Shown: piece by piece, positions 792 through 62,873 of the stretch
Position numbering within the stretch: the stretch's first letter is position 1
How the letters are laid out: every line of letters begins with the position of its first letter
Virus record (IMG/VR): IMGVR_UViG_3300030098_002040
Coordinates: 1 to 64,000 of that record
Direction: 5' to 3' (one strand)
Source of the DNA: an uncultured virus (IMG/VR IMGVR_UViG_3300030098_002040)
Lineage: Duplodnaviria > Heunggongvirae > Uroviricota > Caudoviricetes
DNA length: 64,000 nucleotides
Program-made: the position numbers and the translations under genes
Notes under the pieces: model-generated
The model's input: the letters and a program-made list of their open reading frames with translations, nothing else
The model's database searches: none
Told to the model about the DNA's origin: nothing

Positions 792-1060
792 CTAATTTTC
801 TCCATTGATAAGATCATACCCTTTGGAATAGTAGTTACGCCACCACTTTCATTAGGTCCAACAGAATCAGTTAAACTAATCCATTCATCAGTTTCTTTTA
901 ATACAAAGCCTACAGTTTTCATTGTAGGTGGTTGACGGTGAGCCCAGTCGTATGCTTCTTCATGTTCTACCCAATCAGGTCCGCCAGAAGTTTGTGCATC
1001 TTTCCATATAATATATCGAACATCAGGAGAAGAAATAATCTGATTCCAAAACGCTTCCAA
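788..1060 (-). CDS. Small phage protein (IIWKDA...W...TVGFVL...IPKG pattern)
   Basis: Part of ORF 788..1162. Start inferred as TTG at 1060, 9 nt after GGAG, overlapping the RNAP 3' end. Confidence 0.65.
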   Translation of the reverse strand: MEAFWNQIISSPDVRYIIWKDAQTSGGPDWVEHEEAYDWAHRQPPTMKTVGFVLKETDEWISLTDSVGPNESGGVTTIPKGMILSMEKIR

Positions 1061-3467
1061 TCCTAAGTTCTCCGGTTGAGGGGACTGTTGGTAATGTAAT
1101 TCCGTATCTTTCTTCGATCTGCTCTTTGAGTTCTTGGAGGAGGTTAACTTTGTGCATTTCATAAAATTGTTCCTTTGTTACTTTAATTAAGTCATCAATG
1201 AAGGGAGCATGGCAACCGTATGAATCATGTATCATACTGAAAGAAGACATTCCCATATTATACAATACAAACACAGTACAAATCAAGTGGCTTGCATCTA
1301 AAGAATGAATATAATTTGGAGGAATACCTTGCTCTGCTTTCTTAGCATGTAAGTCTCCGGCATCTTCCCAAAATATTAACTCTTTATTATTAAACAATGC
1401 AGCTAAGCTACGTCTCTTTCGTATCTTTGTGTAATGATGAACAACTTTAAATCCACTTGGTACAGTGTATGTTAAGTGTTCTCCCATTGAAGATACTATA
1501 TTAGTAATAGCTCTAAGATATTCTTTACCTCTGTTAGCTGACTCAAGTGCTGTACCAAGTCCGGCTTGAACAGCTCGTGCAAGTTCTACAATAGCACCTG
1601 CTTGTGTTTCATGAGGAACCCAGTCTACATGTCCTTCTAGTTTCATATACTTTTGGATACCATAAAAGGTTAAACCATATGCATCGCACATAGTACTTCG
1701 CTTTGTAATTTTTCGTGACAACTTACCTTGCCAGTACTCTAAAAACTTAGCACACCAAGGATTGGTTTTGTTTTCATTTAAGTAATCAGTACTAGCATCA
1801 GCTACATGTTGATATAAATCTTGAGGAGTTTCACTAGGAACTACATTAACAAGAGAAGCTAGATCATCGTCTTTCATAATAGCTGACCAATGCTGGCTTC
1901 CGTTACATGCCCCATCCATTTGTACAGGAACTTGTGTAAGCCCATCGGTTCTAAAGAAATCAAATATAGCAGCGATCCTTTGGAATGATTTGTTTTTCTT
2001 TACAGAATCATCAATCCATTCTTTATTATTATAAGGATCTTCATTAATTCTTTTTAACATATCTATATTATCATCTACCCATTGAACACGATCATCAAAG
2101 CTTACTTTGTCTACGTCAAACAAGTTAGCAATATGAACCTTTGCCCAATACTTGCCACGCTCTGTTTGTTGTACAGGATTGGCAAACATAATAAGACCTC
2201 TGTCAAAGTCAGAGCCTTGGCAACTAAGTAGTTCGCAGGTTGTATATCCTCTGCCTCTAAAGTCTAAGGTCATAGTATTATAAAAGAAACCCCAACGCAT
2301 AAGTTTATTAGCAAGCTCTAGTCTTACTAACATACGTCCACGCTTTTGTTCTTCTTTAAACCAGTTAGCCCATGCTTCTTCCCGGCGTTGACACCAGACT
2401 GCCTTTTCATTCTTTGTACCCTCTTCAGGGTAACTGTCACTAAATTCAAAGGCATCAAAAGAATATGCTGGAAGATTGCATAGTCTTGTGTTGTTGTGAA
2501 AGAAGTCAGTCATAACTTTCAGTACACGATCATTTATCTTCCACTCTGTTTTTTGCATACCATTGACAGCATCAAGAACCTTTTGACTAGGCTCGGAATG
2601 TTGTTGCTTAAGTATATGCTCTTCGGTAATATAATCAGAGCTGTATCTGTGAACAACTTCTTTACGAACCCAATGGTGTAGGTATCCTCCGCTTCGTTCT
2701 AGTGTATGATCTACAGGCGGTGATACCATAGGTCTGTATAACAATACAGTATTCTCTAAGAACTTATGTTTCTTGTGTAAATCTTTTAATACATTATCAG
2801 AAAAGGTAACGTGTAATCTTTTTCTCCAGTATTTACCGTGAGGTTTATTAACAACGTAAGTCCTGATAACAGTAGAAGCTTCTGCTATTCGTATCATGTG
2901 ATGTCCAAAGTCATCCTTCTGTTTCAAAGTCATCTTTGGAATTTGCATCATCTTCCTAGTAAAAGCAAGGCATCTTTTCTCTGTCCAGTTCTTTATAAAC
3001 TTAGATTGTTTTCTCCAATCGTCTTTAAAGTCTTTCTTAGCTTGCTGATATGATATAATATTTATAGCATCCTTTGATATAGTTCGAGCTATGTGTTGAG
3101 CTAAGGGTGGTGTTCCTTTAATATCGTCTGACATTGTACTAACTGAGTTTAACTTTAACCAATGAGTAATTACACTACGAATAGTAAGGTCTGCCATTTT
3201 AGCTGCACCTAAAGTTAACAAAGGGTATACCCAGTTCGGAGTCTTCTTGTTAGTAGATATTATATCAATCCATTCTTGGTATACTGGAGTTAACAAAGAA
3301 ACCATATTATCCAAGAGTTGTTGCTCAGGGATACCTTCGTCTCCAGCTCTATCATATTCACTCCAATATTTATTATTACCATCATATAGCATCTGCTCCT
3401 CAAGCCCAGACTGAAAAGAAATCCTACGCTCCTGTTCTTCAGGAGAGAGTGTATTCCAACTTATCAT
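1023..3467 (-). CDS. T7-like single-subunit DNA-directed RNA polymerase (RNAP-1, 814 aa)
   Basis: DFRGR, motif A DGACNGSQH, motif B RKITKRSTMCDAYG, PPNYIHSLDASH, motif C IHDSYG, C-terminal SDYFFS; AAGGAG RBS. Confidence 0.97.
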   Translation of the reverse strand: MISWNTLSPEEQERRISFQSGLEEQMLYDGNNKYWSEYDRAGDEGIPEQQLLDNMVSLLTPVYQEWIDIISTNKKTPNWVYPLLTLGAAKMADLTIRSVITHWLKLNSVSTMSDDIKGTPPLAQHIARTISKDAINIISYQQAKKDFKDDWRKQSKFIKNWTEKRCLAFTRKMMQIPKMTLKQKDDFGHHMIRIAEASTVIRTYVVNKPHGKYWRKRLHVTFSDNVLKDLHKKHKFLENTVLLYRPMVSPPVDHTLERSGGYLHHWVRKEVVHRYSSDYITEEHILKQQHSEPSQKVLDAVNGMQKTEWKINDRVLKVMTDFFHNNTRLCNLPAYSFDAFEFSDSYPEEGTKNEKAVWCQRREEAWANWFKEEQKRGRMLVRLELANKLMRWGFFYNTMTLDFRGRGYTTCELLSCQGSDFDRGLIMFANPVQQTERGKYWAKVHIANLFDVDKVSFDDRVQWVDDNIDMLKRINEDPYNNKEWIDDSVKKNKSFQRIAAIFDFFRTDGLTQVPVQMDGACNGSQHWSAIMKDDDLASLVNVVPSETPQDLYQHVADASTDYLNENKTNPWCAKFLEYWQGKLSRKITKRSTMCDAYGLTFYGIQKYMKLEGHVDWVPHETQAGAIVELARAVQAGLGTALESANRGKEYLRAITNIVSSMGEHLTYTVPSGFKVVHHYTKIRKRRSLAALFNNKELIFWEDAGDLHAKKAEQGIPPNYIHSLDASHLICTVFVLYNMGMSSFSMIHDSYGCHAPFIDDLIKVTKEQFYEMHKVNLLQELKEQIEERYGITLPTVPSTGELRIGSVLESDYFFS

Positions 3468-3486: not shown

Positions 3487-3514
3487 GGGTCTTCTACCCA
3501 TAACCCAACTATTG
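3487..3514 (-). promoter_or_regulatory. Candidate phage RNAP promoter, copy A (CAATAGTTGGGTTATGGGTAG)
   Basis: Intergenic, just upstream of the RNAP-1 RBS; near-identical copies at 10390-10418 and 27109-27135. Confidence 0.55.
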
Positions 3515-3521
3515 GGAACAG

Positions 3522-3575
3522 TAAAATAAAAGGTGAAGAGACAACAGTTTTACCTGTGCCTCCTCACCTTTATTT
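3522..3575 (-). terminator. Possible intrinsic terminator or processing hairpin after DUF932
   Basis: Minus strand AATAAAGGTGAG...TTCACCTTTTATTTT, an imperfect stem ending in a T-rich tract. Confidence 0.4.
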
Positions 3576-3581
3576 GGGGGA

Positions 3582-4610
3582 TCAAGAATATAATTCAGTA
3601 AACTTTAACGCACTCTGCATAACTTTAGAACTTAAAGTTGCAGCGTTGCCGATCAAGTTGTTGTGGATTCTAGACTCTTGTGTAGTCTGCTTACCACGAT
3701 CACCTTGACGATTCTGAATAAAGTTTGTGACTGCATTCGCAGCAAGCCATCCAGTAGATACATTAAGTTTCATATCAGATTCTTCTATGAATTTATCTTG
3801 CATCTTCATAATGTCTGCACTTGCTTTTATCTTTAGCTTATCTACTTTATCATGATTAGGTTCTTTCTTAGCCAGTTCTTTCTTTATATCTGTATTTATA
3901 ATATTTGTATAAACATTTTCAAAGAACAAACTAATTCTTTTGCTATCCCAATCTTTAGCAGTAGCCATAAACTCTACCTTTTCTCTAAAGATTTTACCGG
4001 TTTGCTTAAACGATTTGATAGCAGTTACCATTTGATCGTATACATCTTCGATAGTATTACCTCGATGACGCAAGCTAATCTTGGATACCTTGCCACTTAG
4101 GGCAGCATCTAAAGTGTTTTTGCAACACACACGGACGCTAGTATCTGTACCAATAGTACCCATAGAACCATCCTTGCCATCAAACAATGCAAAGTATGGT
4201 TGTATCTCATCATTGCCCACGGCAAATGAACTTGTTTTCAGTAGAAGATATACTTTTCTTCCACCTTGTAATGATCCCGCAGTTTCTACACGAGCAGTAT
4301 GCCCTGCTGCTTTGACTGCGATATCAAATAAATCTCTGTTTTGTACCGGACGATAGTCTTTACTTACTACACCCAACACTTCGCCAGTATCGCTTCGGAT
4401 ATTGGCAACATAATTATCTACAATAAATTGTTGTGCATCTAATGTGGAAGCTGTTAAGTAATCACTTTGTATTACTTCCCAATCCAAACCACTATGAGTT
4501 AGTGCTTCTGGTATTGTGGGATAGTGATCTATAACAGTACCAAGACCATGCCATGCTTCTTTCTTAGAATACATAGCTGTATCAGTATCATGAATTTCGT
4601 GCATTAACAT
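3582..4610 (-). CDS. DUF932 / TIGR03299-like phage-plasmid protein
   Basis: AWHGLG, LDWEV, VLGVVSKDYRPVQN, ETAGSLQGGRKVY and RVCCKNTL are typical of this family. Confidence 0.85.
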   Translation of the reverse strand: MLMHEIHDTDTAMYSKKEAWHGLGTVIDHYPTIPEALTHSGLDWEVIQSDYLTASTLDAQQFIVDNYVANIRSDTGEVLGVVSKDYRPVQNRDLFDIAVKAAGHTARVETAGSLQGGRKVYLLLKTSSFAVGNDEIQPYFALFDGKDGSMGTIGTDTSVRVCCKNTLDAALSGKVSKISLRHRGNTIEDVYDQMVTAIKSFKQTGKIFREKVEFMATAKDWDSKRISLFFENVYTNIINTDIKKELAKKEPNHDKVDKLKIKASADIMKMQDKFIEESDMKLNVSTGWLAANAVTNFIQNRQGDRGKQTTQESRIHNNLIGNAATLSSKVMQSALKFTELYS

Positions 4611-6215: not shown

Positions 6216-6573
6216 CGAGCCACTCCTCTCCATCATCAGGATTGTTCATAGCTTGTGTTACCAAAGCATCTTCAATTTCAGGGTATGATTCTAAGAATGC
6301 ATCAGATTCTTCTGCATTTAATTCAAATTCTTTATAGATTACTCCATTAGCTCCCATAATAATACAAAGAGAAACTAAACCAGTTGTATGTATTTCCCAA
6401 TGCGAGTCCCCATATTCTTTATCATATGGTTCGTATTCTAAAACAGAACCCTCGACATTAACATATATTTTTAATCCATTTGGATTCAATTGATCTATAC
6501 CTAAGCTTGTATCAGAAAATTCGTATTCATAATTCGTTAGCCCTACTTCGTGTAGGTATTTAGATTTAAACAT
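6208..6573 (-). CDS. Acidic hypothetical protein (121 aa), first gene after the sigma70 promoter
   Basis: ORF track; GGAGG RBS. Confidence 0.7.
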   Translation of the reverse strand: MFKSKYLHEVGLTNYEYEFSDTSLGIDQLNPNGLKIYVNVEGSVLEYEPYDKEYGDSHWEIHTTGLVSLCIIMGANGVIYKEFELNAEESDAFLESYPEIEDALVTQAMNNPDDGEEWLDE

Positions 6574-6593
6574 TAGTATATCCCTCCATATAT

Positions 6594-6622
6594 ATTATAC
6601 CATAAAAAGATTAGAATGTCAA
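6594..6622 (-). promoter_or_regulatory. Consensus sigma70-type promoter
   Basis: TTGACA-17 nt-TATAAT with extended -10 TG, immediately upstream of the RBS of 6208..6573. Confidence 0.9.
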
Positions 6623-6623
6623 C

Positions 6624-6747
6624 AAAAATAGGAGAGGTACTAGGCGACTTGGATCTGCTTAACTTATTTTTCAAAGTCAAAGCCTAGTAAAATTAAGTAC
6701 TTGTTTCTGATCCTAAGTTCTTGAGATAAAAACCAGTACCTCTCCCT
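6624..6747 (-). ncRNA. Candidate structured RNA or long terminator-like element
   Basis: Nested stems GGAGAGGUACUGG/CUAGUACCUCUCC, ACUUAGGAUC/GAUCCAAGU and CUUAAUUU/AAGUUAAG, followed by AUUUUUG. The G-U pairs form on the minus strand. Confidence 0.45.
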
Positions 6748-6776
6748 AACCAGTAGCTGGTTGCAACCCGGTTAAC

Positions 6777-7049
6777 CTAGGAATTATGCAACCGTGACTG
6801 TAGTTCTTGCTCTGCTCGTTCCTTCGTTTCAGGTCGAGCATGTTCCATGTTCAAGATATTCTGTAGCTGTCCTTCGTCCAGCTTACTGTAATCTTTGGTA
6901 GTAACCTCATCCAGAGTGAGTCCACGCTCCTCCAATACCGTCATGGCATTTAGCCCAGCTTCGCCGGACTTTGGATTCTTGGCGATGCCACGGAGAACAA
7001 TGTCTCGGTAGCCCTTAAATTTATTCAATTGTTTCTCTAGTCTAGTCAT
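6777..7049 (-). CDS. Hypothetical protein (90 aa)
   Basis: ORF track; GAGGAGG RBS, ATGA overlap. Confidence 0.7.
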   Translation of the reverse strand: MTRLEKQLNKFKGYRDIVLRGIAKNPKSGEAGLNAMTVLEERGLTLDEVTTKDYSKLDEGQLQNILNMEHARPETKERAEQELQSRLHNS

Positions 7050-7315
7050 ACGAGTTCCTCCTCCATTTCTTGGATAGCTTCTGGTAACCAGTGGAACTTG
7101 TTACGATAGCTCTCTGGTCTTGTTTCTTCAAACGAGTTAACGATGGATATCGCAGCCTTCGGCTCGTCAACGAGCAGATGGTTTTTGATATAACTAACGG
7201 CTTCGCCAATGCAGTTAAAGACATCATCAGGACAGTCGAGTCCATAGCAGCCTTCTATATCTGAGTACACAGCGATAGCATATGGGTTTTGGATATCTAT
7301 GATAATACGATTCAT
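7046..7315 (-). CDS. Hypothetical protein (89 aa)
   Basis: ORF track; AAGGAGG RBS. Confidence 0.7.
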   Translation of the reverse strand: MNRIIIDIQNPYAIAVYSDIEGCYGLDCPDDVFNCIGEAVSYIKNHLLVDEPKAAISIVNSFEETRPESYRNKFHWLPEAIQEMEEELV

Positions 7316-7369
7316 GATTGATCCTCCTTAGATCTTATTAGGGTTTATAAAATGATTTTTCAATCAACT

Positions 7370-7680
7370 AGCCGATCACAAGGAGCTGACATTGGTTTTC
7401 CATTGATGGTTGGGTTCCCAACAGCTCCGTTGGTCGGCTTTGGGCAAATGTGAGAAAAAAGCAGGTGTCCCCATAAACACGGGGTTCCCCGCTAGGGGGG
7501 CTAGAATAGCCGGAGAGCGAAGCGTTCCGCAGACGTTCCGAAGGGTCGTTCCGACCGGCGAAGCCGTTACACGAAGAATGAGGGTTGCCGAAGGCATTCC
7601 CCGCAGCCCGAAGGGAAGCATGCACACCGAAAGGTGAGGACGAAGGACTTCCCGAAGGGAGAGATGACTATATTATATAG
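7370..7680 (+). repeat. GC-rich non-coding region with an array of GAA-loop DNA mini-hairpins
   Basis: GGCTA-GAA-TAGCC, GC-GAA-GC, CC-GAA-GG, CGGC-GAA-GCCG, TGCC-GAA-GGCA, CCC-GAA-GGG, CACC-GAAA-GGTG and TCCC-GAA-GGGA, plus a branched stem at 7370-7439. Confidence 0.8.
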
Positions 7681-7687
7681 CCATTAA

Positions 7688-8137
7688 TTACGCCCGTTGA
7701 TAACGAGCGTCACCACAAACTCCATTACGGAACTTCATGGTTCGGGAACGACAGTGAGCTTTGTTGAAGTCTCTCCAGAAATACGAGACAGTATCTGAAA
7801 AGTTTAGACCTTCTACCTCAAGATAGTGACTGTCGATAATATCCTCGTTAAAGATTTCATCATACCAGCACAACATACGGTAGTTGCCATTGTCCAACAA
7901 AGTCCAATAGATAGCATCAGTCTCAAAATACCGAAGACCGTCACTAACAGCATGGAAGGTGTATCCACGCCCTTGACATTCTTTAATATATCTTTTTAAT
8001 TCACCAAGGCGAACAGTAAACTCAGGCTTGCCATAGGCAAAGACCTTTGCTGTGTCTGCTCTGTTGGTAAAATGAATAGAGACCATGCCACGGCTCCCCT
8101 TGCGGAGAACCACATTCTTAAAGCTTTGCTTACGCAT
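7688..8137 (-). CDS. Hypothetical protein (149 aa)
   Basis: ORF 7688..8224; start moved to MRKQSF because of an AAGGAG RBS. Confidence 0.7.
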   Translation of the reverse strand: MRKQSFKNVVLRKGSRGMVSIHFTNRADTAKVFAYGKPEFTVRLGELKRYIKECQGRGYTFHAVSDGLRYFETDAIYWTLLDNGNYRMLCWYDEIFNEDIIDSHYLEVEGLNFSDTVSYFWRDFNKAHCRSRTMKFRNGVCGDARYQRA

Positions 8138-8235
8138 AACTTTCTCCTTTGTCCGTAGACAAGAAACTAGGAAACCTACAGACGTTCTGTAGGGAAAAAC
8201 TCTTGTCCCTCGGTAGAGGAACAAGAGCGATGGTA

Positions 8236-10035
8236 TCAGCCAATAGCTGATGGCAGCTTATCTAGCAATGCTGCAATATCAAACTCTTCAACGCCAGCTC
8301 TTTGCGGTAGACGCTTATTGTGAGCTTTGCAGAAGTCACCTAGATAATCATGGTTAGTGAACATCCAGATCAAAACCTCTTTGAAGATTTGACGTACAGT
8401 ATCTACATAGGCTACAGGGACACCAAAAGAATCGTGGATAGTCGCAATAGGAATACCCAGCTTCTGACATTTGTTGACTACAAGAGTAACAATGACAGCA
8501 TCTATAAGGTGTGTAAAACATGGAGCACACGCAGCTATCCTGCCCTGACCAGTAGTCATAGGACAAAGATTCTTACGAATCCTCTTGCGTTCATCATCCA
8601 TTGTAAATGAAATATCAATATAGTCCTTGATAGACTCACTCCCTCTCTTGTGAGGAAATGGATGTATAATAATATTATTATCAAGTGGATGCACAAAAGA
8701 AAAGCAAGAATCTGTTTTCTTGTACCAACTACTAGCAGCACCTTTTAACGTACCAAGGTAATCCTTGATAGACGGAAAGCGATTGAACATAGCTTGCTGT
8801 AATGACTTAGCCAAATAAGACAGTTGCCTTATCTGATTAGGAACAGACAAGTCTGCCAAGTGTGACTTAAGACAAGACGCTGGAGATAGTGTGACTTCCT
8901 CAAGAGGAATACGACCCTTTTCGATTTGAGTAGCCAACCCATCGGTTGACTTCGTATCGAGTAGAGACATGTCACACTCCTGTCCAAAGACAAGGATAGT
9001 TCCGATAGCACAAGCTAAAGCATCAGACGCTGTACCATACATGGTTTGAATCCCAGTTGGCTTAGCGATTTCTTTTCTTAAGATCTTAGTATCAATCTCA
9101 GAAAGTGCTTTAGACCAAGAAGAGCCTTCATTTAGAAACTGATCAACAATAGCTAAGTAGAAGTCTTCTTCTAGTATGGTAGTTAGCAAGTTCTTGTCTC
9201 GCATCATAAGAGACACTAAGAGTGGACCAGATGATTTAGTATCTAGTTGCACAATGTAATGCTCTGCAAATGTTTGATCAGTACAAGCTAACCATGCACT
9301 ATATGCTTTCCAAGATTCAGGTACATTATGAGTCGTGAATGAGGAAAAGTACTTACCGTACTCTTCTTTTAAGAAGTCACGAGCTCTATCCCATTGCTCA
9401 TCTGTAAAAGGATAAGCATCTGCAAAGCAGACGAGAGATCGATTAAGATCATCACCTTGATGAGATAATATACCAGAGCCATTGTAGTATCTACCACGCC
9501 AGTCGAGAAAGACTGTGTTGTAGAATCTATCCCAGCTTTCAATCCTTTCGAGTTCCCTAAAGACAGGTTCAGTTTGATCAGACATTACCTTTTCTTTATT
9601 AAGATAAAGCATATGTTCGATCTCAGGATGAATGTCAAACGGTGTATTGCCGATATACGACAGGGCATCCTGCACTCTCTTAGGTTGAGGCACATTGCCA
9701 TTGCGACTCACCACAGTACGGTGTGTCCCTGCAATATAAGGACGAGACAATACATATCCTTTAAGCCTTGTAGGCTCAGGTAGCATTGTGTCGCCCGCTA
9801 CGATAGCATTCTCGATAGACCGTAAATCTGTAAGATCTACATTCCAACCATAGACTGCTACAGCAATCTGCTCTCGCATCTGGTCAACGACCTGATGGAT
9901 AGAGCGGTCTGCTCTTCGTAGTTTATTGCGAATGGTAATGAACTTCTCAAGACCAAAAGTACTGAGAGGTTCCCGGTATCGCTTGGGTAGCTGTTGGATA
10001 GCTCCAAGTTGTTTAGATAGTGGGCTTATAGCCAT
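8236..10035 (-). CDS. Compact, divergent T7-family single-subunit RNA polymerase (RNAP-2, ~599 aa)
   Basis: FLDWRGRYY, motif A LDTKSSG, motif B RKEIAKPTGIQTMYG, APCFTHLIDA, motif C IHDSFG. Start MAISP follows an AAGGAG RBS. Confidence 0.9.
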   Translation of the reverse strand: MAISPLSKQLGAIQQLPKRYREPLSTFGLEKFITIRNKLRRADRSIHQVVDQMREQIAVAVYGWNVDLTDLRSIENAIVAGDTMLPEPTRLKGYVLSRPYIAGTHRTVVSRNGNVPQPKRVQDALSYIGNTPFDIHPEIEHMLYLNKEKVMSDQTEPVFRELERIESWDRFYNTVFLDWRGRYYNGSGILSHQGDDLNRSLVCFADAYPFTDEQWDRARDFLKEEYGKYFSSFTTHNVPESWKAYSAWLACTDQTFAEHYIVQLDTKSSGPLLVSLMMRDKNLLTTILEEDFYLAIVDQFLNEGSSWSKALSEIDTKILRKEIAKPTGIQTMYGTASDALACAIGTILVFGQECDMSLLDTKSTDGLATQIEKGRIPLEEVTLSPASCLKSHLADLSVPNQIRQLSYLAKSLQQAMFNRFPSIKDYLGTLKGAASSWYKKTDSCFSFVHPLDNNIIIHPFPHKRGSESIKDYIDISFTMDDERKRIRKNLCPMTTGQGRIAACAPCFTHLIDAVIVTLVVNKCQKLGIPIATIHDSFGVPVAYVDTVRQIFKEVLIWMFTNHDYLGDFCKAHNKRLPQRAGVEEFDIAALLDKLPSAIG

Positions 10036-10039
10036 ACCT

Positions 10040-10389
10040 AACTCCTTCCGCCAATAGGCAAAAGAAACCAAAGAAACTTCTGGAAACGCTCCAGAAGTAA
10101 AAAGTGCTGGAAGCAATAACTCCTCCAGTACCGTCTCCCGCCATCTTCTCTTCCATGTCTTACGCACAGTAAGACGGCACGGCGAGGATGAGCAGTACGC
10201 CCATCTTTGGTAGCTCACGGCTAAGTAAGCTACCTAAGACAAGCACAGCTTAGGGGGGTATAGGGGGACATTCCGTAATCCCACTAATACAACCCTAGCT
10301 GTATATTCGTGACCCCTAGTCGATTTTCCTAAGTATACCTAGTATATAATATATATAATATATACCTATAGATAAACTATAGTTAACTA
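10040..10389. other. Non-coding hairpin-rich region, probable genome end or terminal-repeat junction
   Basis: Several inverted repeats, GGGGGGTATAGGGGG, TATATAA repeats and repeated CCTA(A)G words. Lies between the last structural gene and the first early gene. Confidence 0.45.
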
Positions 10390-10418
10390 GGGTCTACCTA
10401 CCCTTAACCCAACTATTG
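10390..10418 (-). promoter_or_regulatory. Candidate phage RNAP promoter, copy B (CAATAGTTGGGTTAAGGGTAG)
   Basis: 20/21 identity to copy A; overlaps the stop codon of the giant gene. Confidence 0.55.
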
Positions 10419-13400
10419 CAACTCTTCGGGTAAATCAGGAGTTCTTGGCTTTTGTATTTCTTCTAAAGGATCAACCGAAGGAGCAACATCGACTCGACCC
10501 CTCTCAGGTTGTAGGGTTTCTGTTGCCGGTGCTGGAGCTTGTGTTGGCTCTTGCATTGGTTTTCCTCTAGGAATATTATATTGTTCAATCATATGAGATA
10601 AGAATGCTTGAGGATACAATTCTCTTATTATATTATTAAGATTCTTTTCTTCTTTAGTAAAGAACATATTATTGTTATTTCCAGTATCTATAACAAAGTC
10701 CTCGTTGAATCCTTCACGTCTAGGACCTTGTTGCTGATTACGTCTTAACTGATCTACAGACTTTTGTTTACCTAGAGTATGAGAAAGAATAGCTCTAGTA
10801 AATGGGTTAGCAAATGCCTGACCTATAACTGGATGAGGTGCTAAGGTTAAAAGACGTGCATAGTTTCCAAAGTCTTTCCCATCAGGATTTGTTATATTCT
10901 TAAGAGATTCAAGCTGTCCACTTAGTAATGAGAACCCAACAGGAGCTAAGGGTCTTCCCACTCCTTTGGCTAAGTTGCCTTCTAGAAATCCTTTAAAGGC
11001 TGATACAATAGCTTCTCCTGCAAATCCCATAGAAGGGTTCCTAGATAATATATAAGATATTTCTTTAGCAGGATTTTCTGAAAATCTTCGTCTTAGAGTT
11101 TCAGCACTTACTCCAGCAGCTAACATAATAATAATCATATAAACAGCTTCTTGTAACATAAACCTTATGGTTCTTCCTAAGAAAGCTGCGGGACCATATC
11201 TTGGTAAATCTCTAAAAATTCTTTGTGAAGCGTAAACATTAGGATAAGACTTATAGTGTCTCATTAATCTAAATAGAGGAACATCAGTTGTATCTAAATC
11301 CATAGCGGTAGGATTGATAATATTTAAATGTACCACGGCATCTTCCCAATTCTTTAATCTTCTCATGGCATCATTAAGTCTTGATCTTCCGCTTCTATCT
11401 TGTTCTGAAATATAAGATTTTAAAGATTTGCCAAAAGAATATACTCCATATACCCTAGAAGATTTATCTAATATTATATCTATATCGTTTAAGATAGCAA
11501 TATCTAAAAGACCCATTTGTGCCATTTGATAGACTGCTTCTACTCGACCGTGAGAACTACCAAGGGTTCTAGAAACAATTTCTTTTAATTGTTTTCGATT
11601 TTCTAATACATCCCTATTTTTATTTATTTCTTCAACAAGAGTTTTAAATCTACCATCTTCAATAATTTCCTGTAGAAATTTTCTATAAGATAAAGTAGAT
11701 ACCATTCTAAGGTCAGTATTAATAGCTCCGTTTACAGAGTTTGATAAAATTCTAGATTTTCTTAAAAATCTTCTTGTAGAACTTAACTCGTGATCAGGAG
11801 CCTCATCATCAAACAAAAGACTTCTATCCATTTCATACCTATTATGTTTTAGATACTTAGCGTAATAAGCCATACCAGATGCTAGTTCTTTTTGTTTTAT
11901 TCTTCCATTCTTTGTAGCATGGCTTGCCCCTAATGTTATACTATCTATAAGAGTTGTAAAGAAGTTTGAGAATCCTCTTGGACCTCCAAACATCAAAGAG
12001 GTAGTATTAACTATACCTTCTACTACAGGAGTAGCTACAGTTAAGTTAGGTCCTAATAAAGTAGAAGTAAAATCATTTATTGTATCAACAGCTGGATTTA
12101 CATTGTTTACAGCTCTTGTTGCAACTCCCCCTGTTATCTGTAGTTTTCTTCTTAATATTTGTATATCTTCTAAAAGCCTAGATCTAACAGGTCTTTGTAT
12201 TCCTCCAAATAAACTCTTTACAGAATTATCTATAATATTTAAGCCAGATAAATCTGTATTATTTTCTATAACATTTTCAAATATAGTTAAAAATAAATCT
12301 GCATTTATTGTAGAATCAGTAAATTGTTTTAATGTTGAAACAGTACTTGCATTCCACACAGGACCTCGAACCATACCATTTACAATATCGGATATAGAAT
12401 TATTAAATAAACCTTTAGTATTAGGGTTAGTTAGTAAATCATAAGAACTTGGTATACCTACTATTTTTTGTGGTAAGAAAGAAGTACTTCCTATTCTATT
12501 CATAAGTAAATAAAGTTTGTAATCGATAAGATTTAAAACATCATTAGAGTTTATTAAATATTGTTTATGGTTTGGTCTAACAAGATTATTATCTCCAATT
12601 ACTTTAGCTAAATAACTTCCAGATAAAGCTTGAAATTTACTTACAAGATTTGTATGCGACTCTTTTATTCTTCTATTATATGTATTAACTATAACGTCAT
12701 CAGCAGTAGGTATAATTTGTTTTAAAGTTTTAGTTCCACTAGAAGCTTCTTCATACATACCTTCAACCATTTGATGTCTTAATAAGTTAATCTCTAATCC
12801 TTCCCTTGCAATATAATCCCTTTTAGATTCTGTATCAGTTTTTATTTGTTGCTTTAAAGTATCTGCTCTTTCGTCTTCGCTATTTAAAATACGTTGATCA
12901 ATATATTTTTTAACATTATCAGGAGTTAAATCCCAAGATTTTAAAAACTTTGAATCAACTATTCCATCAGTTACATTACTTAAATCCGGAAGAATATTAG
13001 ACATATACAAACCAATTGGATCAACAACTCCTTTATTAGCGGATTTTAATTCTAGTTCACTTTTAATCATATCTTTCAACGCATCTCGTTTAGATAATAC
13101 TTCATCTAAAACTTTATTATTTTCCATATTTTTAATTTTTCTTTTTAAAGTTAATATAATATTTCTATTAGGATCTGTAAATTCTGGCTCAGATAAAACA
13201 CCAGCATCAAACATAATATCAGTCATTTGTTGTAAAAACTCTTTATATTTTTTTGCGTACTGTTTAATTAAATTATAATCAGGATCAGTTTCTGAAATGT
13301 CCTTTTCGTTAACTATAAATCGAATTGCCCCTTCTTTTATTCGTTCAAATCTATCTGTGTCCAATTTTCCTTCTTCAGTAAATCCTTTATCGTAATCTGC

Positions 13401-16400
13401 TGCTTCTTGTTCTAAAATCATTAATTCATTATAATTGTGTTCAAAGCTTTGAATACCTTCAGGATTTTGTAAATTACCAGTAGTGTTTTCTAATCCACTA
13501 GCAATCATTCTAGAAAATAAAACAATTGGAATAGCATTATTTAAATAAGTTCTATCTGACTGAGTAGTATTAAAACTAAAGATACCATTAGTAGCAAGTT
13601 TATTTAAAGTTAAATATATACTTGGAAAATAAGCTAAGTATTGTTCTGTTCCTTCTAAAACATATTCTCCTCTATGCTCTCCCATTTTTTCAAATGAATC
13701 TGCTAAAAATGTTTTTAAAATATCTAAATCACCTTGTTCATTATTATTTAATAAACTAGTAATATAATTTCTAGGTATTAATAAATCGTCTTTAATTTTA
13801 CCATGTCTAGAATGAGTAATTTCTCTTTTTGAATTATTAATTATTTTGCGATTATTTAAAACAGTTCTTCTATCTTGACCAAACATATTTTTATAATCTA
13901 TTTCAGATATTTGTTTTTCAATATGTTCTTTTTCTTTTAACTTATTAACTAATTCAGCTCTCTTTTTATCTTTTTCTTTTAGATCTTTTGCATTGTTCAT
14001 ATCATTTTCTATATCTCTTAACTCACGCTCTATATTCTCAAGGTCATCTATTAACGTCTCAAAAGAAGTACCAGTAGTTTCTGTTTTAGTAATATTATCT
14101 ATTTGTTCTTTTGTCAGAGGAGAACTATCTCTAAATTGAAATAAAGAAGGAGATTGATCACCTAATGTAAGAGATTTTGGATTTAAAAAGTTATACATAT
14201 TCTCTGCATTAGGATGTCCAGTAGAAACTTCAGAGGGGGTTCTAGAAGAAATAGCCCTATGTATTCCTGCTCGTTGATTAAACCCGTAACTGTTTTCTAC
14301 AATTTTTTCCATCATCTCATATGCTTTTGGTGTTCTTGTTTTAAATCTAAATAATGCATCAGTTATTGTTTGTAAGTATCTTCTAACTGAACGAACAATT
14401 TTACCTACCATTGATTCAACATGTTTATCAGGAACTATAATAGATTTATCATGAGTTACATCTAACATAACTCTATGAGACACATACAAAGCAGCCCATT
14501 CTTCTGGATTATTTTGATAGAAAGCAACAAGAGATTGTAATTGTTCTCCACTATACTTAGAGTACTTAGGAAGAGAAGTTACAAAGTCTCGTATAGAAAC
14601 TTGTCCTTCATAAGATTTAATCCACTCAACAACACTTATCCAATGTGCTTCGTCTTTTCTAATAAATCTTTCTACTCCCATATGTCCAATGGTTTCGTGA
14701 AGAATAATTTCTACCAATTCTGTATTATTATCAACATTAGTAGGATCAACAATTATAGAAAACTTGTCTTTCTTAACACCAAAAACTCCAGACACTCTAT
14801 CCTTAGTTCCTATTTTATACAACGGTTGAGTTGCAATTTCTAAATCTATATCGTTAAAGAACTCAGGATTCATTCTTGCTAAATGAGCAAAAGTTATTCT
14901 TAACATTTCTTTTTGTTCATTGTTTAAATTAGAACTTTCTATAGTTTTATTTAATTCTAAAGCAGTATCATTTGATTTAAATGTTTTATTAAATTGTTTA
15001 AAATCTTTTAAAGACCACAAATCAACATCGTCATCTAAACCTCTTGATAAATCTAAAGGATTATAAATACCATGACTATCTAGTCCCTCTTGTATAGCTG
15101 CTGACAAAGCTAGTTTAGCAGCAATTAATTGAGAAGGACTTGGATCTTTAACACCAACAATTTGTTCTAAGGCTGTTTCAAATCCAACTAAATTTTCTAA
15201 CTCATTAACTTCTTCGCCTATTAATTTAGAACGAACTTCAGAAGCACTGTTTCTATCTAACCATTGCCTAGCACTTCTAAATAATATTTGTGCTTCATTT
15301 AAAGCTGACTCTTGAAAATCTATCTCTGTATTTAATTCTTTATAAAATTTCCCAGCCTTGCGTGTGCGTGATTTAACGATAAGCCCTCTTAATTCGCTTG
15401 CAGTTAAATCTTTATTTAAAATATGCAATGCCCAAGTAGGAAACATATTACTATCTACAGTTAATAAGTCACCTTCAATATCATATTCAGTTCCGTTTAA
15501 ATCTTCTAATACTTTTTTAAATAACTCTACTGTAATAGCCCCATCTTCTTCTGTATATTCTTTAATTCGTTTATTTATTTCTTCTTTACTTGTTATCTTA
15601 TTTAATTCTTCTACTGTATTTTTAACATCTTCATTATCTTTCATATATGTAGGAACATGCTCAGAATTATTTATATCTATTTCTCCTTTTAATCTAGTTG
15701 TTAAAAGATGAACTACCCATCCCCCTACTTCTGTTTTTTCTTTTTTAAGAATATTTTTTGCGTAATCATTTAACTTTCCTTTATCGCTTTTATTTGCTTT
15801 CATGTTCTTAAAGATAGTCCTAAGATCAAAGCTTCTCATTGCTATTCGCAAAGCTAAATCATATTCACCGGTAAGGTTGCCTAATTGTACCCAATCAAAG
15901 TGATTACCATTAAAAGTAACAACCTTATATCCTTCCTTTTGTGCTGCTTCAACTCTTTTTAAAAATGCTTTTAAGTTTTTACCATCAGACATTTTATTTT
16001 CTTTTCGATCAGAGTAATGTTCAGCAATGCTATATACCTTAGTTATTTTACCATCTATAACCCAATCAGTTTCAATATCTATAGCTAATATTTTATTATT
16101 TTTTAACCATCCATCATAATCTAATAGTTCAGGAATATTATCTACACCCTTTAATCCTAATTCTTTTAAAATAGATTTAAAATTATCTACATTAGTTCTT
16201 TGTAAAACTCCTATATTATTAGAATCACTTATATGTTTTTCTAGATGCTTAGTCATTTTATTTAAAGGATTAAAATTAAGTTTATTAATTTGTTCATTTA
16301 ATTTATTTACATTTGGTTCTATTTCTGTAAATGTTTTATAATCTATATTTAAAACAGACGCAGCAAATATTTTAGCATCTTGGAAATTTAATCCATGACT

Positions 16401-19400
16401 ATCTTGAACTTTTAAAGCTAGAGATAATACTCTATTAGTATCATTTGGATTACTAGTTATTTCATCTAATACTCTAGATAATCTTGTATTGCCTGATTTA
16501 GTAGCCGATGTTTTCATAATATCAATAGCTGAATAATAAGATTTTGCATAAGCAGTATCAAAATCCATTCCTTTTAATCCACCTAATTTATCTATATCAA
16601 TAGTTTTATGCCGTTCGTTTGGATCAAATGAACTACTTCTTCTATCGTCTGTAAGAGTATAAGAATCTAATTCAGAGTCTTCCATAATTTCAAATGCTTT
16701 TAAAAGTATTTCATTTTTCTTTCTAAGATCAGTTTGAAACCCAGCTTCTAAACTTTCATGCAATGAACGCTCTGTACCTAAATATGGTTTTTGAGTAATA
16801 GACCTATCTTCAATTTGTCGCAAAAGAGTTGACTTAGTATTAATTAACATCTCTTGCAGCCCTTCACGAGTAAGATGATAGGTAGGTGCTCCAATAACTT
16901 TACCATGTAGCAATGGGTATATACTGCCCCACATTCTTTTAATTTTGCCTTCATGCGTAGGATCAAGAACCATTCTTCCTCTTGTTTCAGAATCAGGATC
17001 TAAATAAATTGTAAAGTTTCTATGATGCTGAATTGAAGCTTCTTCAATTGCTTTAAAGAATATATCAGATGCCATGTTTCTAATAACTGGATCAGGATCA
17101 TTGTACATTCTTTCTAAATCCCACCAAGCTAATAACTGTCCTTCTGGTAATTTACTTTCGAGTTCACGAAGATAAGCTCCAATTTCACTATCTTCTTTTT
17201 TCTTAGCTTGTATATATTCATTTGTTTTAGATATAAGGAAATGCTCCATCATAGCCACGCCAGTTTCTAAATGGTGAACAGCTACCGGTCCTTCTACAGT
17301 TGCTACGACTTCTTTCTTTTTAAAAGCTGTGTCTTCATCTAAAGCTACAAGATGTCTTGGGGCAGCAGTAAAAACTCTTGGATCTCCTTTTTCAGATCGT
17401 TGAGATATTACCTTAGCAAGTTGAAGATAAGACATAGCATCGGTATCTATTGCATCTCCTAGTTCTGGTAAAAATACATCTAACTCTCTAGGATCATAAG
17501 TAGTTGTTTTTACTTCATGAGCAATAGACCTCTGTGTGAATAGTTTATCATACCAAGTCATTCTTATTTCTCTACTTCTTGCTGTATAATCTGCTTCGCT
17601 TGTAGTTCTTAATCCTTTTACAATTCCTCTAGTTTGACGTAAAGTGTCTGACATAATTCTATCATGATCCCATAGAATCCATAATCTAGCCCATTGTTTA
17701 TTTTTTATTTCAGTAAAATATCCTCGTTCCATAGCCCAAGGAAGTACAGACTCTTTAAAGTTTCGCATTGCTTTGTAAACTTTTTGTTCATTAGATTCGT
17801 CACTAAAAACATTACTAATAGGCTCTGTAGCAGGAGGACTAGCTACAGGAAGTGTATTAGTATCGAAAGGATGTGATCCAGTTAAAAGACCTGATACAAA
17901 TAAATTTAAATTATCATCAAGTTTATTATCAGCAAGTTTATTAAAATTATCTATTCTCTTATCTTGTTCTTTAACTTTATTTTCAAAGAATTTTTTTCTT
18001 AAGAACAAAGATCCTTTGTCTTGCATAAGATTTCCGGGAGATCCCATTGTAGGTCTAAATGAAGAGATACCAGCCGGAACTTTTGTTGTAATCTCAACCT
18101 GATCTTTTACAGTTCTTCTTGACCATAATGGTTTATTATTTTCATCAAACCTACCGCCAAATTCATTCTTAGTAAATTGATCTCTACCAATTTCATTTGA
18201 TAGTTCACTAGGATTATTCCAAAAATTATTTGATCGTGCTCTTGCTTGAACAGTATGATCTGATTCAGCTTGCCATTGTGCAAAGTAATCAGCCATAGTA
18301 TATTCTGGTATAGCTAACATAGCAGGTTCTAATTGAGTTGAAACTCTAAGAGCTAAATCTATAGCAATAAGTTTATTTACATAATCTCGTTTATTTCCAA
18401 CTCCTTCAGGAAATCTATTACCTAATGTTTGCCAAATACCGTATGGTTTTTCTTCGCTTCTATAGCTACCAAAGGGACTTGTATAAGGACTCCTAGCTCC
18501 AGCAAAAGGAAGCTGCAATCGTCCTGCTGCTGTATCAATCCCAAACTCTTGGAATACATGGTATTGCAATAGTAGCCCACCCATTAGCCAATTTTCTTCA
18601 ACATGAGCAGGATCTAATCCTGAAGCTTCCATAATTTTTTTAGTCATCTCATCGTATTCAATTCTAATTGGCTGTGCATTCTTTTCATTTAAAACTCTAA
18701 GTAATGGCATTTCTTTCCATGCTTCATTAAACCCTGTTAATAATCTATATATTTCAGAATAATGTTTATTAAATATTTCTGGATTATCTAAATCAGTTTC
18801 AGTTAAAGGTCTATCAACAGAAGGATGTCTTTGTGATTTTAAATATTCTTTAACATTATTAATTCTTTCTTGAGTATCTTTTCTAATAATTTCTTTAAGC
18901 CTTGCTTTTTCTTCAGGTCTTCCTTGACTTAAATAATCTGACATTTCTTCTACATAGTTCTCATGAGCTTGAATTAAATCTCTTCTTTTTTTACCAGCCT
19001 CTTTCATATCATCACCATAGACAGCTAACCAGTCTGCTTTAACTAATTCTTCTTGTTTTGCATAATTTTCTAAAATATTAATTAGCTCTACTCTTTCAGT
19101 AGCAGTCATACCTAATCCTTCAAGAATTGTATTAGTTGCTCCTTGAACTTCATTAATCATAGTTGCTCTTAATGCAGCCCCGCCTTTATTTAAAAAGGTT
19201 GCCCATACTTTAATATCTTTTAGAGTAATGCCGTTAGCTTCAGCTTGTTTTGCCCAATCAGCGTTTTGTTGCCAGTCTTTAACTAATGCATTTGCTGTTC
19301 CTTCTAAACCTGCCCAATATAATTGAACCATAGTAGGCTTCTTCATAAACTCTCTAAATAATTTAACTCTATCTGTAGTCTGGTCGTTATTTTTTAAATC

Positions 19401-22400
19401 TTCTAATATACCTTTAAAATCAAATAACTCGTTTAGTTTTTGTAAAGACTCCAATGATTCTGGGTTCATATCTATATGCGATTCAATATTTTGTAGTGCT
19501 GACTCTAATACATACTTGCCAACATTTAAATAAACATCATCTTGAGTATACCCTAATTTATCATATACTAAATTATCTAGAAATTCTTGTATTTCTTTAT
19601 TTGATCTTTCGCCTGAGATTAACATAGATACAGTAATATGTTGACCAGAAAAACTATGATCCCTAACTCTTTGATATGAAAATATATTATCTATTCCTAT
19701 TGTTTGTGCTTTTTCTTGTCCTAATTCTAAAGACCTTTTAGCAAAACCTTCATAGTTTTTATTCATAAATTCCCAAGCAACGTGTTGAAAGAATCCAGCA
19801 AAAGTTAACATCCCAGATGCCATACCCGGCGTAGCTCCTTCTGCTATTCTTTTATTTAATCTACCTCCCACACTCTCTTCATCAAATGACTCATCTCTTT
19901 TTATAAATAAAGGCTGAGGATTATATTTTTCATCAGCTTTTGCTTTTTCATCTTTAGTTAATTCTGAAACAGATTTACCTAACTCTTCTGCATATTTTTC
20001 TCTAGCTTCTACTTGAGTTTGAAATCCAGTAATAATTCCATCAACATAAAATCTACCATCATGAATTAAATTTAACCCTATAACAGGGAAATCTAACATA
20101 ACTTCCATTACCATTTTTTGCCATTGTTCAAAATTAGTAATAGTTTCTCCCGGAGTTCTATTAGATATCTGAGGAAGAAAATCAAATCCTAATTTTATTT
20201 TACCTACAATTTCTCTACTAGGAATATAATATTCTCTGAAAGCTTCTTCTTTTTGTTTAGCCGTTAACTCTTTATCTTTATCTAGCTTTCTATCTTTTAT
20301 ATATTCTTCTATAGCTCCTTCTTTAGTAGTTTTTCTTTTTAATAAATCATTTATAAAATCAGTTACCTCATCAGGTGTCATTGCTTCAATTGTTTTTAAA
20401 GAGTGTTTCATTCTATGAGTAACTAAGGCTTCTTCATAGTTTCGTCTTAGATTTTTTGTAGAGAAAGGCATATCATGTCTAACACTTTTAGGTTGTAGTT
20501 TAGAACTAATATTCGGCTGTCCTCTGTCTACAAGATCTTGAGGGCTATCAGGATCAGTTTGATTTTCAATATTTGTACTGATATTTCTTCTATAAGTTGA
20601 TACTTCATTTCTTCTAAAGATTGCATCAGACAATGCTCTGCCAGCCTCTTCGGCGGGCATCCAATCTAAAGTACCATCCCCCATATCTGTTTCATTTTTA
20701 ATTCCATAATAAAGTTTTGTAGTTTCTAATAATATATCAATAACTCTATCAAGACTTTGTGTTGTTTCATTACTATCAATGATTTCTATATACAACTCTT
20801 TAATTCTAGAGTCAATAGTTTTAGGACGAGTAGTAACATAGTCTTCGTATATATTAACAAAAGTTTCTAATAATCTTTGTTTATTAATTCCTCTTGCTTG
20901 CTCTATAAAATTATCTTTAAATATTTCTGTATATTCTTTTTCTGTGACTGATCTATTAGCGTCAACATCTGTATCTCTATTAAATCCTGCTCGCAATCTA
21001 TTCTCTTTAGGTATTGTTTTAACATAATCTAATAGACCTTGATGTAATTCTTCAGCAAATTTTAATTGTCTTCTATAGTTAGTGGTGCTTTTATCTAAAG
21101 ATTCTACTCTACCTTTAGCATCAACTACTGCTCTTTCAAGTTTGCTTTCTACTCTAGCAGAATAATTATCTCCTAGTTTTTTAGATATTGATAATAAAAC
21201 AGTAGTAAGTTCTTCAACATCAACAATAACATCCATATAATCGCCCTCATGGATTGTGTTATTATCTGTTTTTTCTCTTCTATATAATTTATCTGGTGCT
21301 AATCGTCCATCTTTACTTGCTTCAATAGCTCCTGCTTGTTCAAGAATTACCGGTCTAATTCCTTCTAATGCCTTTGATCCTTCTGGTCCTAGCTCTGAAC
21401 CCATATGAAATATAGGGTGATTAAAATTTATATTTCCTAATCCTGCTTGGTGTAACATAGCAATAACTAAACCAAGATGAGAATATTGTCCGTTTTGATT
21501 TTTTAAGGTTTGTAATAGACGAGCAGCATCTAAGAATCTTTCTGCATATTCTCCAATAGTATCTTCAGTAATAACAAAAGGAATACTATCTTGTGGCGGT
21601 ACTGGGCGTGAAGTCTCTGCTTCTGTTACTGATCTTTTTAATAAAGGCTGATCATTTGCAGTAAACTCACCAATGCTTACATAGTCGTGGACAAGCTCAT
21701 TAAAAGCATTCATAGCTTCGACATCAATTCCAGATAATCTAGCTATCATCATATTTATTCCTCTATGTCTATTAGAGGTTTCGTTTCTCCACATTGCAAA
21801 ATCTGTTATCATATCTCTAGCAGTATTCATATCAACAGTATCTTCCATTTTTAAATCAGGATACTTTTCTTTTAAAAAACTGTCAATATAATTAAAACTT
21901 ATATAGCTATCTTTAACATATGTTTTCCAAGTATATAAGTCTATAGTTTTTAATTTCTTTTTTCTAGCATCATCATTTATTTGGACTTTGCTTTGTTGTG
22001 CTGATCGTACAACATATCTATGATATGCAAATTGTTGAAGACCAGATGAGAAAAGATCTTCTTTTGGAATAAGCCTAGAAGCTGCTACTTCTTTATTTAA
22101 AGACAATCTATTTATATTTTTTCTTAGTTCACTAATTTCTTTGAACGGTCCTAATTTTTCTAATTCTTTCTCTTTCTTTTGGATTTGATTTAAAAGTTTA
22201 TTAAATTCTTTTCTTGTTTTAAAATATTGTTCTAAATTTTCTTTTAATTCTTTTTTATTTTTTATTAATTCTTTCTTTTTATCTTCTAATATTTTTTTAC
22301 TTTGATTACTTGGACTATCTATAGCTTTAATAAAATCTTCTATAACTTGAGATAATTTACTATTTTTTATTTCAGTATTAAATTCTTTACTTTCAATTGA

Positions 22401-62800: not shown

Positions 62801-62873
<73 letters not shown>

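Follow-up and report, generated by a model that had tools for sequence, protein, structure and literature searches.

Compact RNA polymerases of the T7 family

The RNA polymerase (RNAP) of bacteriophage T7 binds and opens its promoters with an N-terminal domain, which then refolds for elongation. A second, shorter RNAP has been reported in marine Autographiviridae of group AG-10.1, where 23 genomes carry an additional RNAP of ~650 aa, positioned amid small unknown genes with a gene of 3,274–5,566 aa on its upstream side and the typical ~800-aa RNAP on its downstream side (Du et al. 2025, PMC12361551). In its passages on this additional enzyme, the paper suggests that different genes may need different RNAPs and offers no mechanism, domain analysis or promoter; the function of the large protein is termed unclear there. 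We found no functional study of the AG-10.1 additional RNAPs in the open-access literature. The present analysis concerns RNAP-2, a compact polymerase encoded in positions 1 to 64,000 of IMG/VR record IMGVR_UViG_3300030098_002040, an uncultured virus of the Caudoviricetes. This whole stretch of 64,000 nucleotides is referred to as the window, and the full-size T7-like polymerase encoded in it as RNAP-1. L- and G-numbered records (e.g., L001, G012) are related loci or genomes compared with the window.

The window derives from a T7-like podophage, with genes for portal, capsid, tail tubes, terminase, DNA polymerase and primase-helicase, and a gene for a protein of 5,199 aa (the giant protein); the sequencing runs that hold it are marine. 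RNAP-2 is a member of the published AG-10.1 class of additional RNAPs. Its gene has the reported position, and the protein shares a clade (FastTree support 0.988) with the compact RNAPs of L039, L054 and L055, whose records, three of the six relative names checked, are listed as AG-10.1 in the supplement of PMC12361551. RNAP-1, in turn, nests among the RNAP-1 proteins of listed AG-10.1 members (support 0.97–0.99; the paper's own tree is based on seven core genes). The member described here is shorter, 599 aa compared with ~650. Relative to the paper's account of these genes, the new elements are a GC-rich, hairpin-rich island, the lack of an upstream sigma-70 site, and motifs in the giant protein that resemble those of the virion RNAP (vRNAP) of phage N4.

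N4 RNAPII of the Schitoviridae (gp15, 269 aa, and gp16, 404 aa; PDB 6DT7) is likewise a minimal T7-family RNAP; it is compared here on the basis of a review (PMC4496689) and of our own alignment. According to the review, N4 RNAPII has a truncated thumb and N-terminal domain, acts after the virion RNAP, and needs single-stranded DNA (ssDNA) and gp2. The alignment places the same two truncations in RNAP-2, whose profile matches both N4 subunits (E 2.5e-9 and 7.8e-16). However, N4 RNAPII is a heterodimer split after DxxGR, whereas a single open reading frame (ORF) encodes RNAP-2 in every locus examined, the window included. The N4 enzyme is also larger (673 vs. 599 aa) and belongs to a separate clade. 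The window phage additionally has its full T7-like RNAP, and no gp1 or gp2 homologue was identified in it.

The 648-aa RNAP of Chaseviridae phage phiEcoM-GJ1 (GJ1) is also compact, single-chain and encoded by the first gene, and it resembles RNAP-2 in structure (TM 0.59). Unlike RNAP-2, it has an annotated sigma-70 promoter ahead of its gene and a longer N-terminal part, and in the tree it is placed outside the RNAP-2 clade. With T7 RNAP (PF00940, phrog_414) RNAP-2 shares palm, fingers, active site, the position of the specificity loop and the C-terminal end point, at an identity of 14–17%; residues 1–266 of T7 are reduced to ~85 aa, the thumb is shorter by ~46–48 aa, the end is not FAFA-like, and no sigma-70 promoter lies ahead of the gene. 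Because the extra gene has already been published, and N4 RNAPII and the Chaseviridae compact RNAPs are known, the surprise is limited; the contribution here is the anatomy of RNAP-2 together with a set of candidate DNA elements.

Anatomy, conservation and phylogeny of RNAP-2

A preliminary description of the locus had proposed a compact RNAP of ~599 aa, and an intact T7-family ORF of this length is indeed present. It scores 46.8 bits with Pfam RNA_pol (PF00940), for which the curated cut-off is 22, and its AlphaFold model (17 sequences, pLDDT 77) has T7 RNAP as best match (Z 33.2, rmsd 3.2 over 417 residues). Across fold comparisons with T7 RNAP, Z was 31–33 and rmsd 3.1–3.5, with 417–445 residues aligned; the match is dense from residues ~85–90 (T7 262–267) to 599 (T7 883). 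The frame stays open upstream to a GTG at 10218, which would give 660 aa, and calls of 626 and 643 aa exist in databases. The longer upstream frame is not conserved, as the open frames of relatives L039, L041 and L042 comprise only 595–598 aa. For this reason, the 599-aa start, with its AAGGAG Shine-Dalgarno sequence, is taken to be the conserved one.

The second line of evidence is the domain anatomy. As noted in the preliminary description, only 177 aa precede the DWRGR motif of RNAP-2, compared with DFRGR at residue 402 in RNAP-1. Column counts from a 69-sequence alignment give 83 aa before the column of T7 residue 266 in RNAP-2, 242 in RNAP-1, 121 in N4 RNAPII and 117 in GJ1, while the thumb region (T7 325–421) measures 48, 96, 67 and 57 aa, respectively. 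The shortfall of ~224 aa relative to RNAP-1, with which RNAP-2 has short local matches only, thus consists of ~160 aa of N-terminal domain and ~48 aa of thumb, and the thumb deletion is directly visible in the T7–RNAP-2 alignment. The residual N-terminus has no significant profile match to the N-terminal domains of T7, RNAP-1 or N4 (best E 0.08, to T7 40–84). A complete N-terminal promoter-binding domain (about T7 72–266) is absent, also from the structure predicted for RNAP-2 alone, and in this respect the protein departs from the canonical, factor-independent T7 type. T7 RNAP contacts its promoter through an AT-rich loop, an intercalating hairpin and a specificity loop (PMC4496689); only the last of these is evident in RNAP-2 by model, fold comparison and profile search. 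With the specificity loop kept, RNAP-2 may be capable of sequence-specific promoter reading.

The four motifs that had been described as intact are all present in RNAP-2, in the T7-family order DxRGR, A, B, C and with both catalytic Asp residues, but they deviate in detail. Motif B has the form R-x4-K (R320, K325), and motif A lacks the usual Q-H. At the nine active-site columns checked RNAP-2 holds the T7 residue, except for K in the R627 column. The C-terminus, correctly described as non-aromatic, is PSAIG; yet this end aligns with T7 residue 883, and close relatives do have an aromatic end (MIF, MVF, IVF or IIF).

The third line of evidence is conservation, which, judging from the sequence comparisons, is that of a family under purifying selection and free of decay. 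The best 16 of 956 RNAP-2 profile matches are all 551–654 aa long, and R180, R182, D265, H509, D512, H534 and D535 are invariant in 17/17 compact RNAPs at ~20–57% identity. Over eight informative pairs the dN/dS of RNAP-2 is 0.11–0.24: 0.16–0.24 in six pairs among L039–L042, 0.11 for L053/L054, and ~0.15 for the window and L001, where dS is near saturation (five near-identical pairs were uninformative). These values are about twice those of RNAP-1 (0.06–0.12); the first 90 codons of RNAP-2 give 0.06–0.30. No internal stop was found in any locus examined. Pseudogene-like decay of the homologues, which had been named beforehand as a refuting finding, is thus seen neither in the length range nor in dN/dS. 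A complete T7-like promoter-binding domain, named beforehand as another such finding, is likewise absent, as described above.

A compact RNAP lies upstream of a full-size RNAP in eleven other records (L001, L005/L037, L006, L038–L042 and L053–L055). Among near-complete records RNAP-2 is present in five of seven, G002 and G003 being without it. In a midpoint-rooted FastTree tree of 415 columns, the compact RNAPs form the single clade mentioned above, apart from RNAP-1, T7, N4 RNAPII and GJ1. Since the records without RNAP-2 nest inside the RNAP-1 tree, the trees suggest that the gene was acquired long ago and lost later in some records. In L039–L042 pairs that have both genes, dS of RNAP-2 (0.33–0.54) is well below that of RNAP-1 (0.86–1.7), which suggests sequence-level constraint or island exchange. 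The clade also has smaller members, P0037, P0040, P0041 and P0161 (526–573 aa), with ~12 residues in the specificity-loop region; a search for the genomic context of the 551–573-aa loop-less subgroup returned none. No cultured phage with a close RNAP-2 relative was found, and no record covers 80% of the query.

Possible roles of RNAP-2 in infection

In our opinion, RNAP-2 is best regarded as an active, cytoplasmic, early RNAP, a single-chain analogue of N4 RNAPII that takes part in a relay of three polymerases and needs help to open DNA; we see even chances that this is so. On this reading, the island around RNAP-2 would enter the cell first, and the transcription of RNAP-2 would fall to a phage enzyme, for which the giant ejection protein's polymerase-like domain is the simplest candidate, or to another non-sigma-70 route. 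Made at the very start of infection, RNAP-2 would be the AG-10.1 counterpart of N4 RNAPII; it would transcribe part of the early region, with DNA uptake as a by-product, and may turn on RNAP-1, which would then serve replication and the late genes. The specificity loop would read the promoter, which would be opened with the help of supercoiling, of an ssDNA-binding cofactor, or of a site that is pre-melted or forms a mini-hairpin. Such opening would be required because the T7 elements for promoter binding and melting are gone. Dependence on pre-opened DNA or on a cofactor had been anticipated in the preliminary description and, given the much reduced N-terminal domain, such a dependence, like that of N4 RNAPII, is still the best explanation, although a role of the 149-aa protein as a general partner is not supported and long-hairpin promoters are unlikely (see below). 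A plausible cofactor is the gp2.5-like ssDNA-binding protein (SSB) of the phage. The AG-10.1 group is described as lacking an SSB in the account given by PMC12361551; as listed members L039 and L054 carry a gp2.5-like gene, this absence looks like an annotation miss.

With ~85 N-terminal residues and half a thumb, RNAP-2 represents a natural deletion experiment on the minimal size of a T7-family polymerase, and it may show what replaces the T7 melting elements. Its role would explain why a widespread group of uncultured marine phages keeps two, perhaps three, RNAPs.

The setting of the gene is the first point in favor of early, phage-driven expression. RNAP-2 lies within an island (~6620–10410) of higher GC and flat, near-zero skew, flanked by the ejection genes on one side and the host-promoter region on the other; most relatives have this pattern of GC and skew, and in L054 the RNAP-2 gene is AT-rich. 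A scan of nine loci for sigma-70 sites (counted at >= 10/12 matches) gave 21 in the 47.7 kb that separate RNAP-2 from RNAP-1, as against 0 in the 19.5 kb on the upstream side of RNAP-2. The island opens, upstream of RNAP-2, with a single-copy boundary element that is a candidate terminus or packaging signal; a similar element occurs in G012, and five more distant records gave no match to the strict pattern. RNAP-2 had been called the first gene after a presumed genome end. It holds this place in the window, but other small ORFs come first in L001, L006, L039, L041, L054 and L055, and contigs of two DNA runs bridge the 10035–10413 junction with no genome end seen. Between the boundary element and a promoter-like repeat, an AT-only palindromic stretch (10330–10400) is kept in L001.

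Long hairpins are ten times enriched in the islands (65 vs. 6.4 in 11 islands, including L007 and L009 from records without RNAP-2). Their wobble pairs on the coding strand are predominantly G.T (74, vs. 12 A.C), and for this reason the long island hairpins, including that at 8199–8228 and the 10036–10330 leader, most likely function in RNA, as terminators or processing sites. The same bias makes it unlikely that the stretches at 8140–8230 and 10040–10260, put forward earlier as hairpin templates, are template-strand DNA promoters. A different kind of element is the cluster of C(GAA)G mini-hairpins at 7517–7660, the densest in the window, with 0 such mini-hairpins on the other strand. L001 has nine at the same place, with different stems (0.7 expected); these two are the only ones with the cluster among nine RNAP-2-bearing records scanned. 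Since a G-x-A loop closed by G:C is required in the promoters of N4 vRNAP (PMC4496689), the cluster is a fair candidate for a DNA element. Eight records (the window, L001, L038, L039, L041, L006, L054 and G012) have a hairpin with CCTGCTTTT after it. Its resemblance to the T7 class II signal ATCTGTT (bioRxiv 10.1101/2021.01.11.426313) is a hint that phage-type transcription takes place in the island. A long conserved RNA hairpin (7370–7450, minus strand; L001 8095–8160), with outer arms that are near-identical in the two phages, lies a short way downstream of this CCTGCTTTT element. In Rfam this hairpin has no match and no family covers the island, the only hit being a tRNA.

The giant protein is the candidate for a third, N4-vRNAP-like polymerase. 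An invariant HD, a D..G resembling motif A and a K-P...Y resembling motif B are common to seven giant proteins of ~20% identity (in the window HD at 1984–1987, motif A at 2118, motif B at 2224–2232 and a D at 2493). The spacing of 131/114/261 compares with 135/119/273 in the N4 mini-vRNAP. Weak matches point the same way (N4_RNAP_helical, E 0.0098; RNA_pol in 2/6 members; phrog_414, E 0.021), and atlas neighbours of the candidate domain at 0.86–0.87 serve as leads only; RNA_pol is also reported for four AG-10.1 giant proteins in PMC12361551. Like N4 vRNAP gp50, the giant is a cysteine-free ejection protein with an internal block of A and B motifs at similar spacing; instead of DxxGR, however, it has at that position the invariant HD, which is motif-C-like. 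In N4, the virion-type RNAP transcribes RNAPII (PMC13434306). The invariant HD ahead of motif A may point to a circular permutation of the giant's motifs, but a collinear N4-type order fits the spacing as well. Searches of PDB, genomes and homologues with the candidate domain returned nothing or one protein. A more explicit version of the relay, in which the giant's domain transcribes the promoter-less island and RNAP-2 then starts at the GAA mini-hairpins or at a short duplex site and turns on RNAP-1, is less likely. Such a three-polymerase relay has not been described for T7-like phages. On this version, RNAP-2 would be a natural, near-minimal, programmable transcription enzyme.

Several observations weigh against RNAP-2 as an early, assisted member of a relay. 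Two of the seven near-complete relatives are without RNAP-2 and yet keep the giant gene, so that the relay is not obligatory. The compact RNAP of GJ1, encoded by a first gene, has annotated putative phage promoters, albeit as predictions; hence, compactness need not mean dependence on a factor. The sigma-70 contrast is weakened by the higher GC of the island, which lowers chance matches, and by the relatedness of the nine loci. In one RNA run, contigs cover 5 of 30 bins, with 0 in RNAP-2. No RNAP-2 promoter could be assigned from the repeat searches, and the hairpin ahead of RNAP-1 may instead be an RNase III site like T7 R1. Finally, the model of the giant's candidate domain (7 sequences) has a pLDDT of 36.5 and leaves the fold unconfirmed, the HH probability is 2.5%, and the motif-C candidate is degenerate.

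The strongest competitor, unlikely in our view but to be taken seriously, is a self-sufficient RNAP-2 that uses its specificity loop together with the residual helices to recognise and open a short duplex promoter, for which the AATRRTTGGGTTAWGGG repeat ahead of RNAP-1 is a possibility. The specificity-loop region, at 46 aa vs. 41 in T7, is in keeping with this, as is GJ1, which combines 117 aa before the T7-266 column with its annotated promoters. The window has 6 copies of the T7-promoter-like AATRRTTGGGTTAWGGG repeat, against a mean of 0.09 by chance, and each lies on the coding strand. In 4/4 loci folded (the window, L001, L037 and L039) RNAP-1 has a strong, terminator-like hairpin ahead of it, and this is followed in the window and L001 by a phage-type repeat before the gene begins; the arrangement counts in favor of the relay as well. 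On the other hand, RNAP-2 shows nothing that corresponds to the intercalating hairpin or the AT-rich loop of T7, and the GJ1 promoters are predictions. The repeat itself has the look of an ordinary T7-type promoter, stands at late genes too, and fits RNAP-1 better. As a targeted search recovered it in one of six genomes, the window only, it is assignable to neither polymerase; the output of repeat searches without such a target was dominated by codon noise.

It is improbable that RNAP-2 chiefly makes primers or an R-loop, rather than mRNA, at an origin formed by the 7517–7660 cluster. The six template-strand mini-hairpins and the nine with different stems in L001 would suit an origin, as would the near-zero GC skew across the island, and the short thumb may mean low processivity. 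However, the cluster is missing from the seven other RNAP-2-bearing records scanned and could equally serve the giant's polymerase domain, and the phage has its own T7-type primase-helicase.

Still less credible is an RNAP-2 in two parts, in which the adjacent 149-aa protein, the partner named in the preliminary description, provides the missing promoter-binding domain. The 149-aa ORF directly follows RNAP-2 in the window and in L001 (31% identity), and 85 + 149 aa come close to the 242 aa of RNAP-1. Nevertheless, a homologue was found in only one (L001) of eight other RNAP-2-bearing loci searched, for which reason the protein is no general RNAP-2 subunit. The ORF lies downstream of a terminator-like hairpin and has neither a family nor a confident fold match; the predicted complex with RNAP-2 scored 0.00, which is no evidence either way.

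Equally remote is a virion-borne RNAP-2 that is ejected as a motor for genome internalisation, as had also been suggested. The gene adjoins the ejection genes, its product is compact, and nothing host-promoter-like lies upstream. Yet RNAP-2 contains 11 Cys, compared with 0 in the ejection-type proteins of 228, 1,488 and 5,199 aa and 0 in N4 vRNAP, and so lacks the character of a cysteine-free ejection-operon protein; its gene, moreover, lies beyond the boundary element and has a GC3 of 0.35 vs. 0.14 in the large virion genes. The cysteine content argues that RNAP-2 is probably made in the cell and not ejected. Least probable of all is a decaying or catalytically dead remnant: motif A without Q-H, the shifted motif B, the non-aromatic end, a dN/dS about twice that of RNAP-1 and the two gene-less relatives among seven are outweighed by both catalytic Asp, H509, H534 and the two DxRGR Arg being invariant in 17/17, by the absence of internal stops in any locus, and by a dN/dS of <= 0.24.

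Coordinates and further features of the window

Table 1. Features of the RNAP-2 locus and related elements (window positions unless another record is named)
Feature	Position	Strand	Basis or remark
RNAP-2, compact single-chain T7-family DNA-dependent RNA polymerase, 599 aa, 11 Cys	8236..10035	-	PF00940 E 2.5e-12; Z 33.2 to T7 RNAP
DxRGR motif, DWRGR, aa 178–182	9490..9504	-	R180 and R182 invariant in 17/17
Motif A, DTKSSG at 265, catalytic D265	9226..9243	-	motif search and alignment
Motif B, R320..K325..Y333-G334	9034..9078	-	motif search and alignment
Motif C, IHDSFG at 533, H534, catalytic D535	8422..8439	-	motif search and invariance
Residual N-terminal region, ~85 aa, short helices replacing T7 residues 1–266	9781..10035	-	model, fold comparison, alignment
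Specificity-loop region, aa 459–505, beta-hairpin 473–490, low confidence	8521..8661	-	model, alignment; 46 aa vs. 41 in T7
RNAP-1, full-size T7-like RNA polymerase, 814 aa, DFRGR at 402	1023..3467	-	family matches and alignment
Highly structured leader upstream of RNAP-2, Shine-Dalgarno at 10042–10047	10036..10330	-	RNA z -6.8
Terminator-like hairpin and T-run directly after RNAP-2	8199..8228	-	z -6.2
149-aa ORF, no known family, homologue in closest relative only	7688..8137	-	31% in L001
Six template-strand C(GAA)G mini-hairpins; candidate for an ssDNA origin or promoter	7517..7660	+	6 vs. 0.54 expected
Hairpin then CCTGCTTTT, resembling T7 class II pause/terminator	7452..7500	-	motif comparison
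Two small island ORFs, 89 and 90 aa; the 90-aa one with homologues in L001, L038–L042	6777..7315	-	ORF calls and homology
Perfect sigma-70 promoter with extended -10, downstream edge of GC-rich island	6594..6622	-	motif scan
Boundary element, TAGGGGTCACGAAT at 10305–10318 then C-rich block; candidate genome-end/packaging signal	10253..10323	-	one copy each in 4/5 close records
Phage-promoter-like repeat, end of giant gene, pointing into island	10401..10417	-	targeted search
Phage-promoter-like repeat directly upstream of RNAP-1	3497..3513	-	targeted search
Further phage-promoter-like repeat copies	27118–27134, 35115–35131, 56744–56760, 56936–56952		targeted search
Strong RNA hairpin ending in a U-rich tail, located between the DUF932 gene and RNAP-1; a processing site or terminator	3515..3582	-	z -6.4
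Giant protein, 5,199 aa, cysteine-free, ejection-type; candidate N4-vRNAP-like domain and RNase_H_2 domain	10413..26012	-	family matches, motifs
Giant's candidate polymerase motifs, aa ~1983–2493	18540–20066	-	alignment of seven giant proteins
gp2.5-like SSB	63260–63796; L039 20914–21429; L054 19229–19765	- (window)	family match

For the host, no RNAP-1 relative was found in GTDB genomes, and published host scores for group members are 0.14–0.20. Large internal insertions bring the homologues of tail tubes A and B (44610–48716 and 38489–44617, minus strand) to 1,368 and 2,042 aa; in relatives these insertions measure about 215 and 905–1,804 aa. A tRNA gene (62801–62873) is located between the RusA and primase regions, and a 10-base N gap (5141–5150) falls inside a 72-aa ORF. 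Contigs of run X9 have deletions or replacements among the small early ORFs at 5790–6780 (e.g., skips of 201–728 bases), marking a strain-variable region.

Two relatives have additional hairpin arrays in their islands. In L055 (~200–3050 and 5700), about eight GC-rich hairpins with a CTGTTTGAT-like tail stand mostly just upstream of small island ORFs ahead of the compact RNAP; these copies may be per-gene promoters, terminators or processing sites. In L006, two near-identical hairpin pairs (905–990/1340–1430 and 4172–4205/4490–4520) occur in the island, one copy being directly upstream of the compact RNAP.

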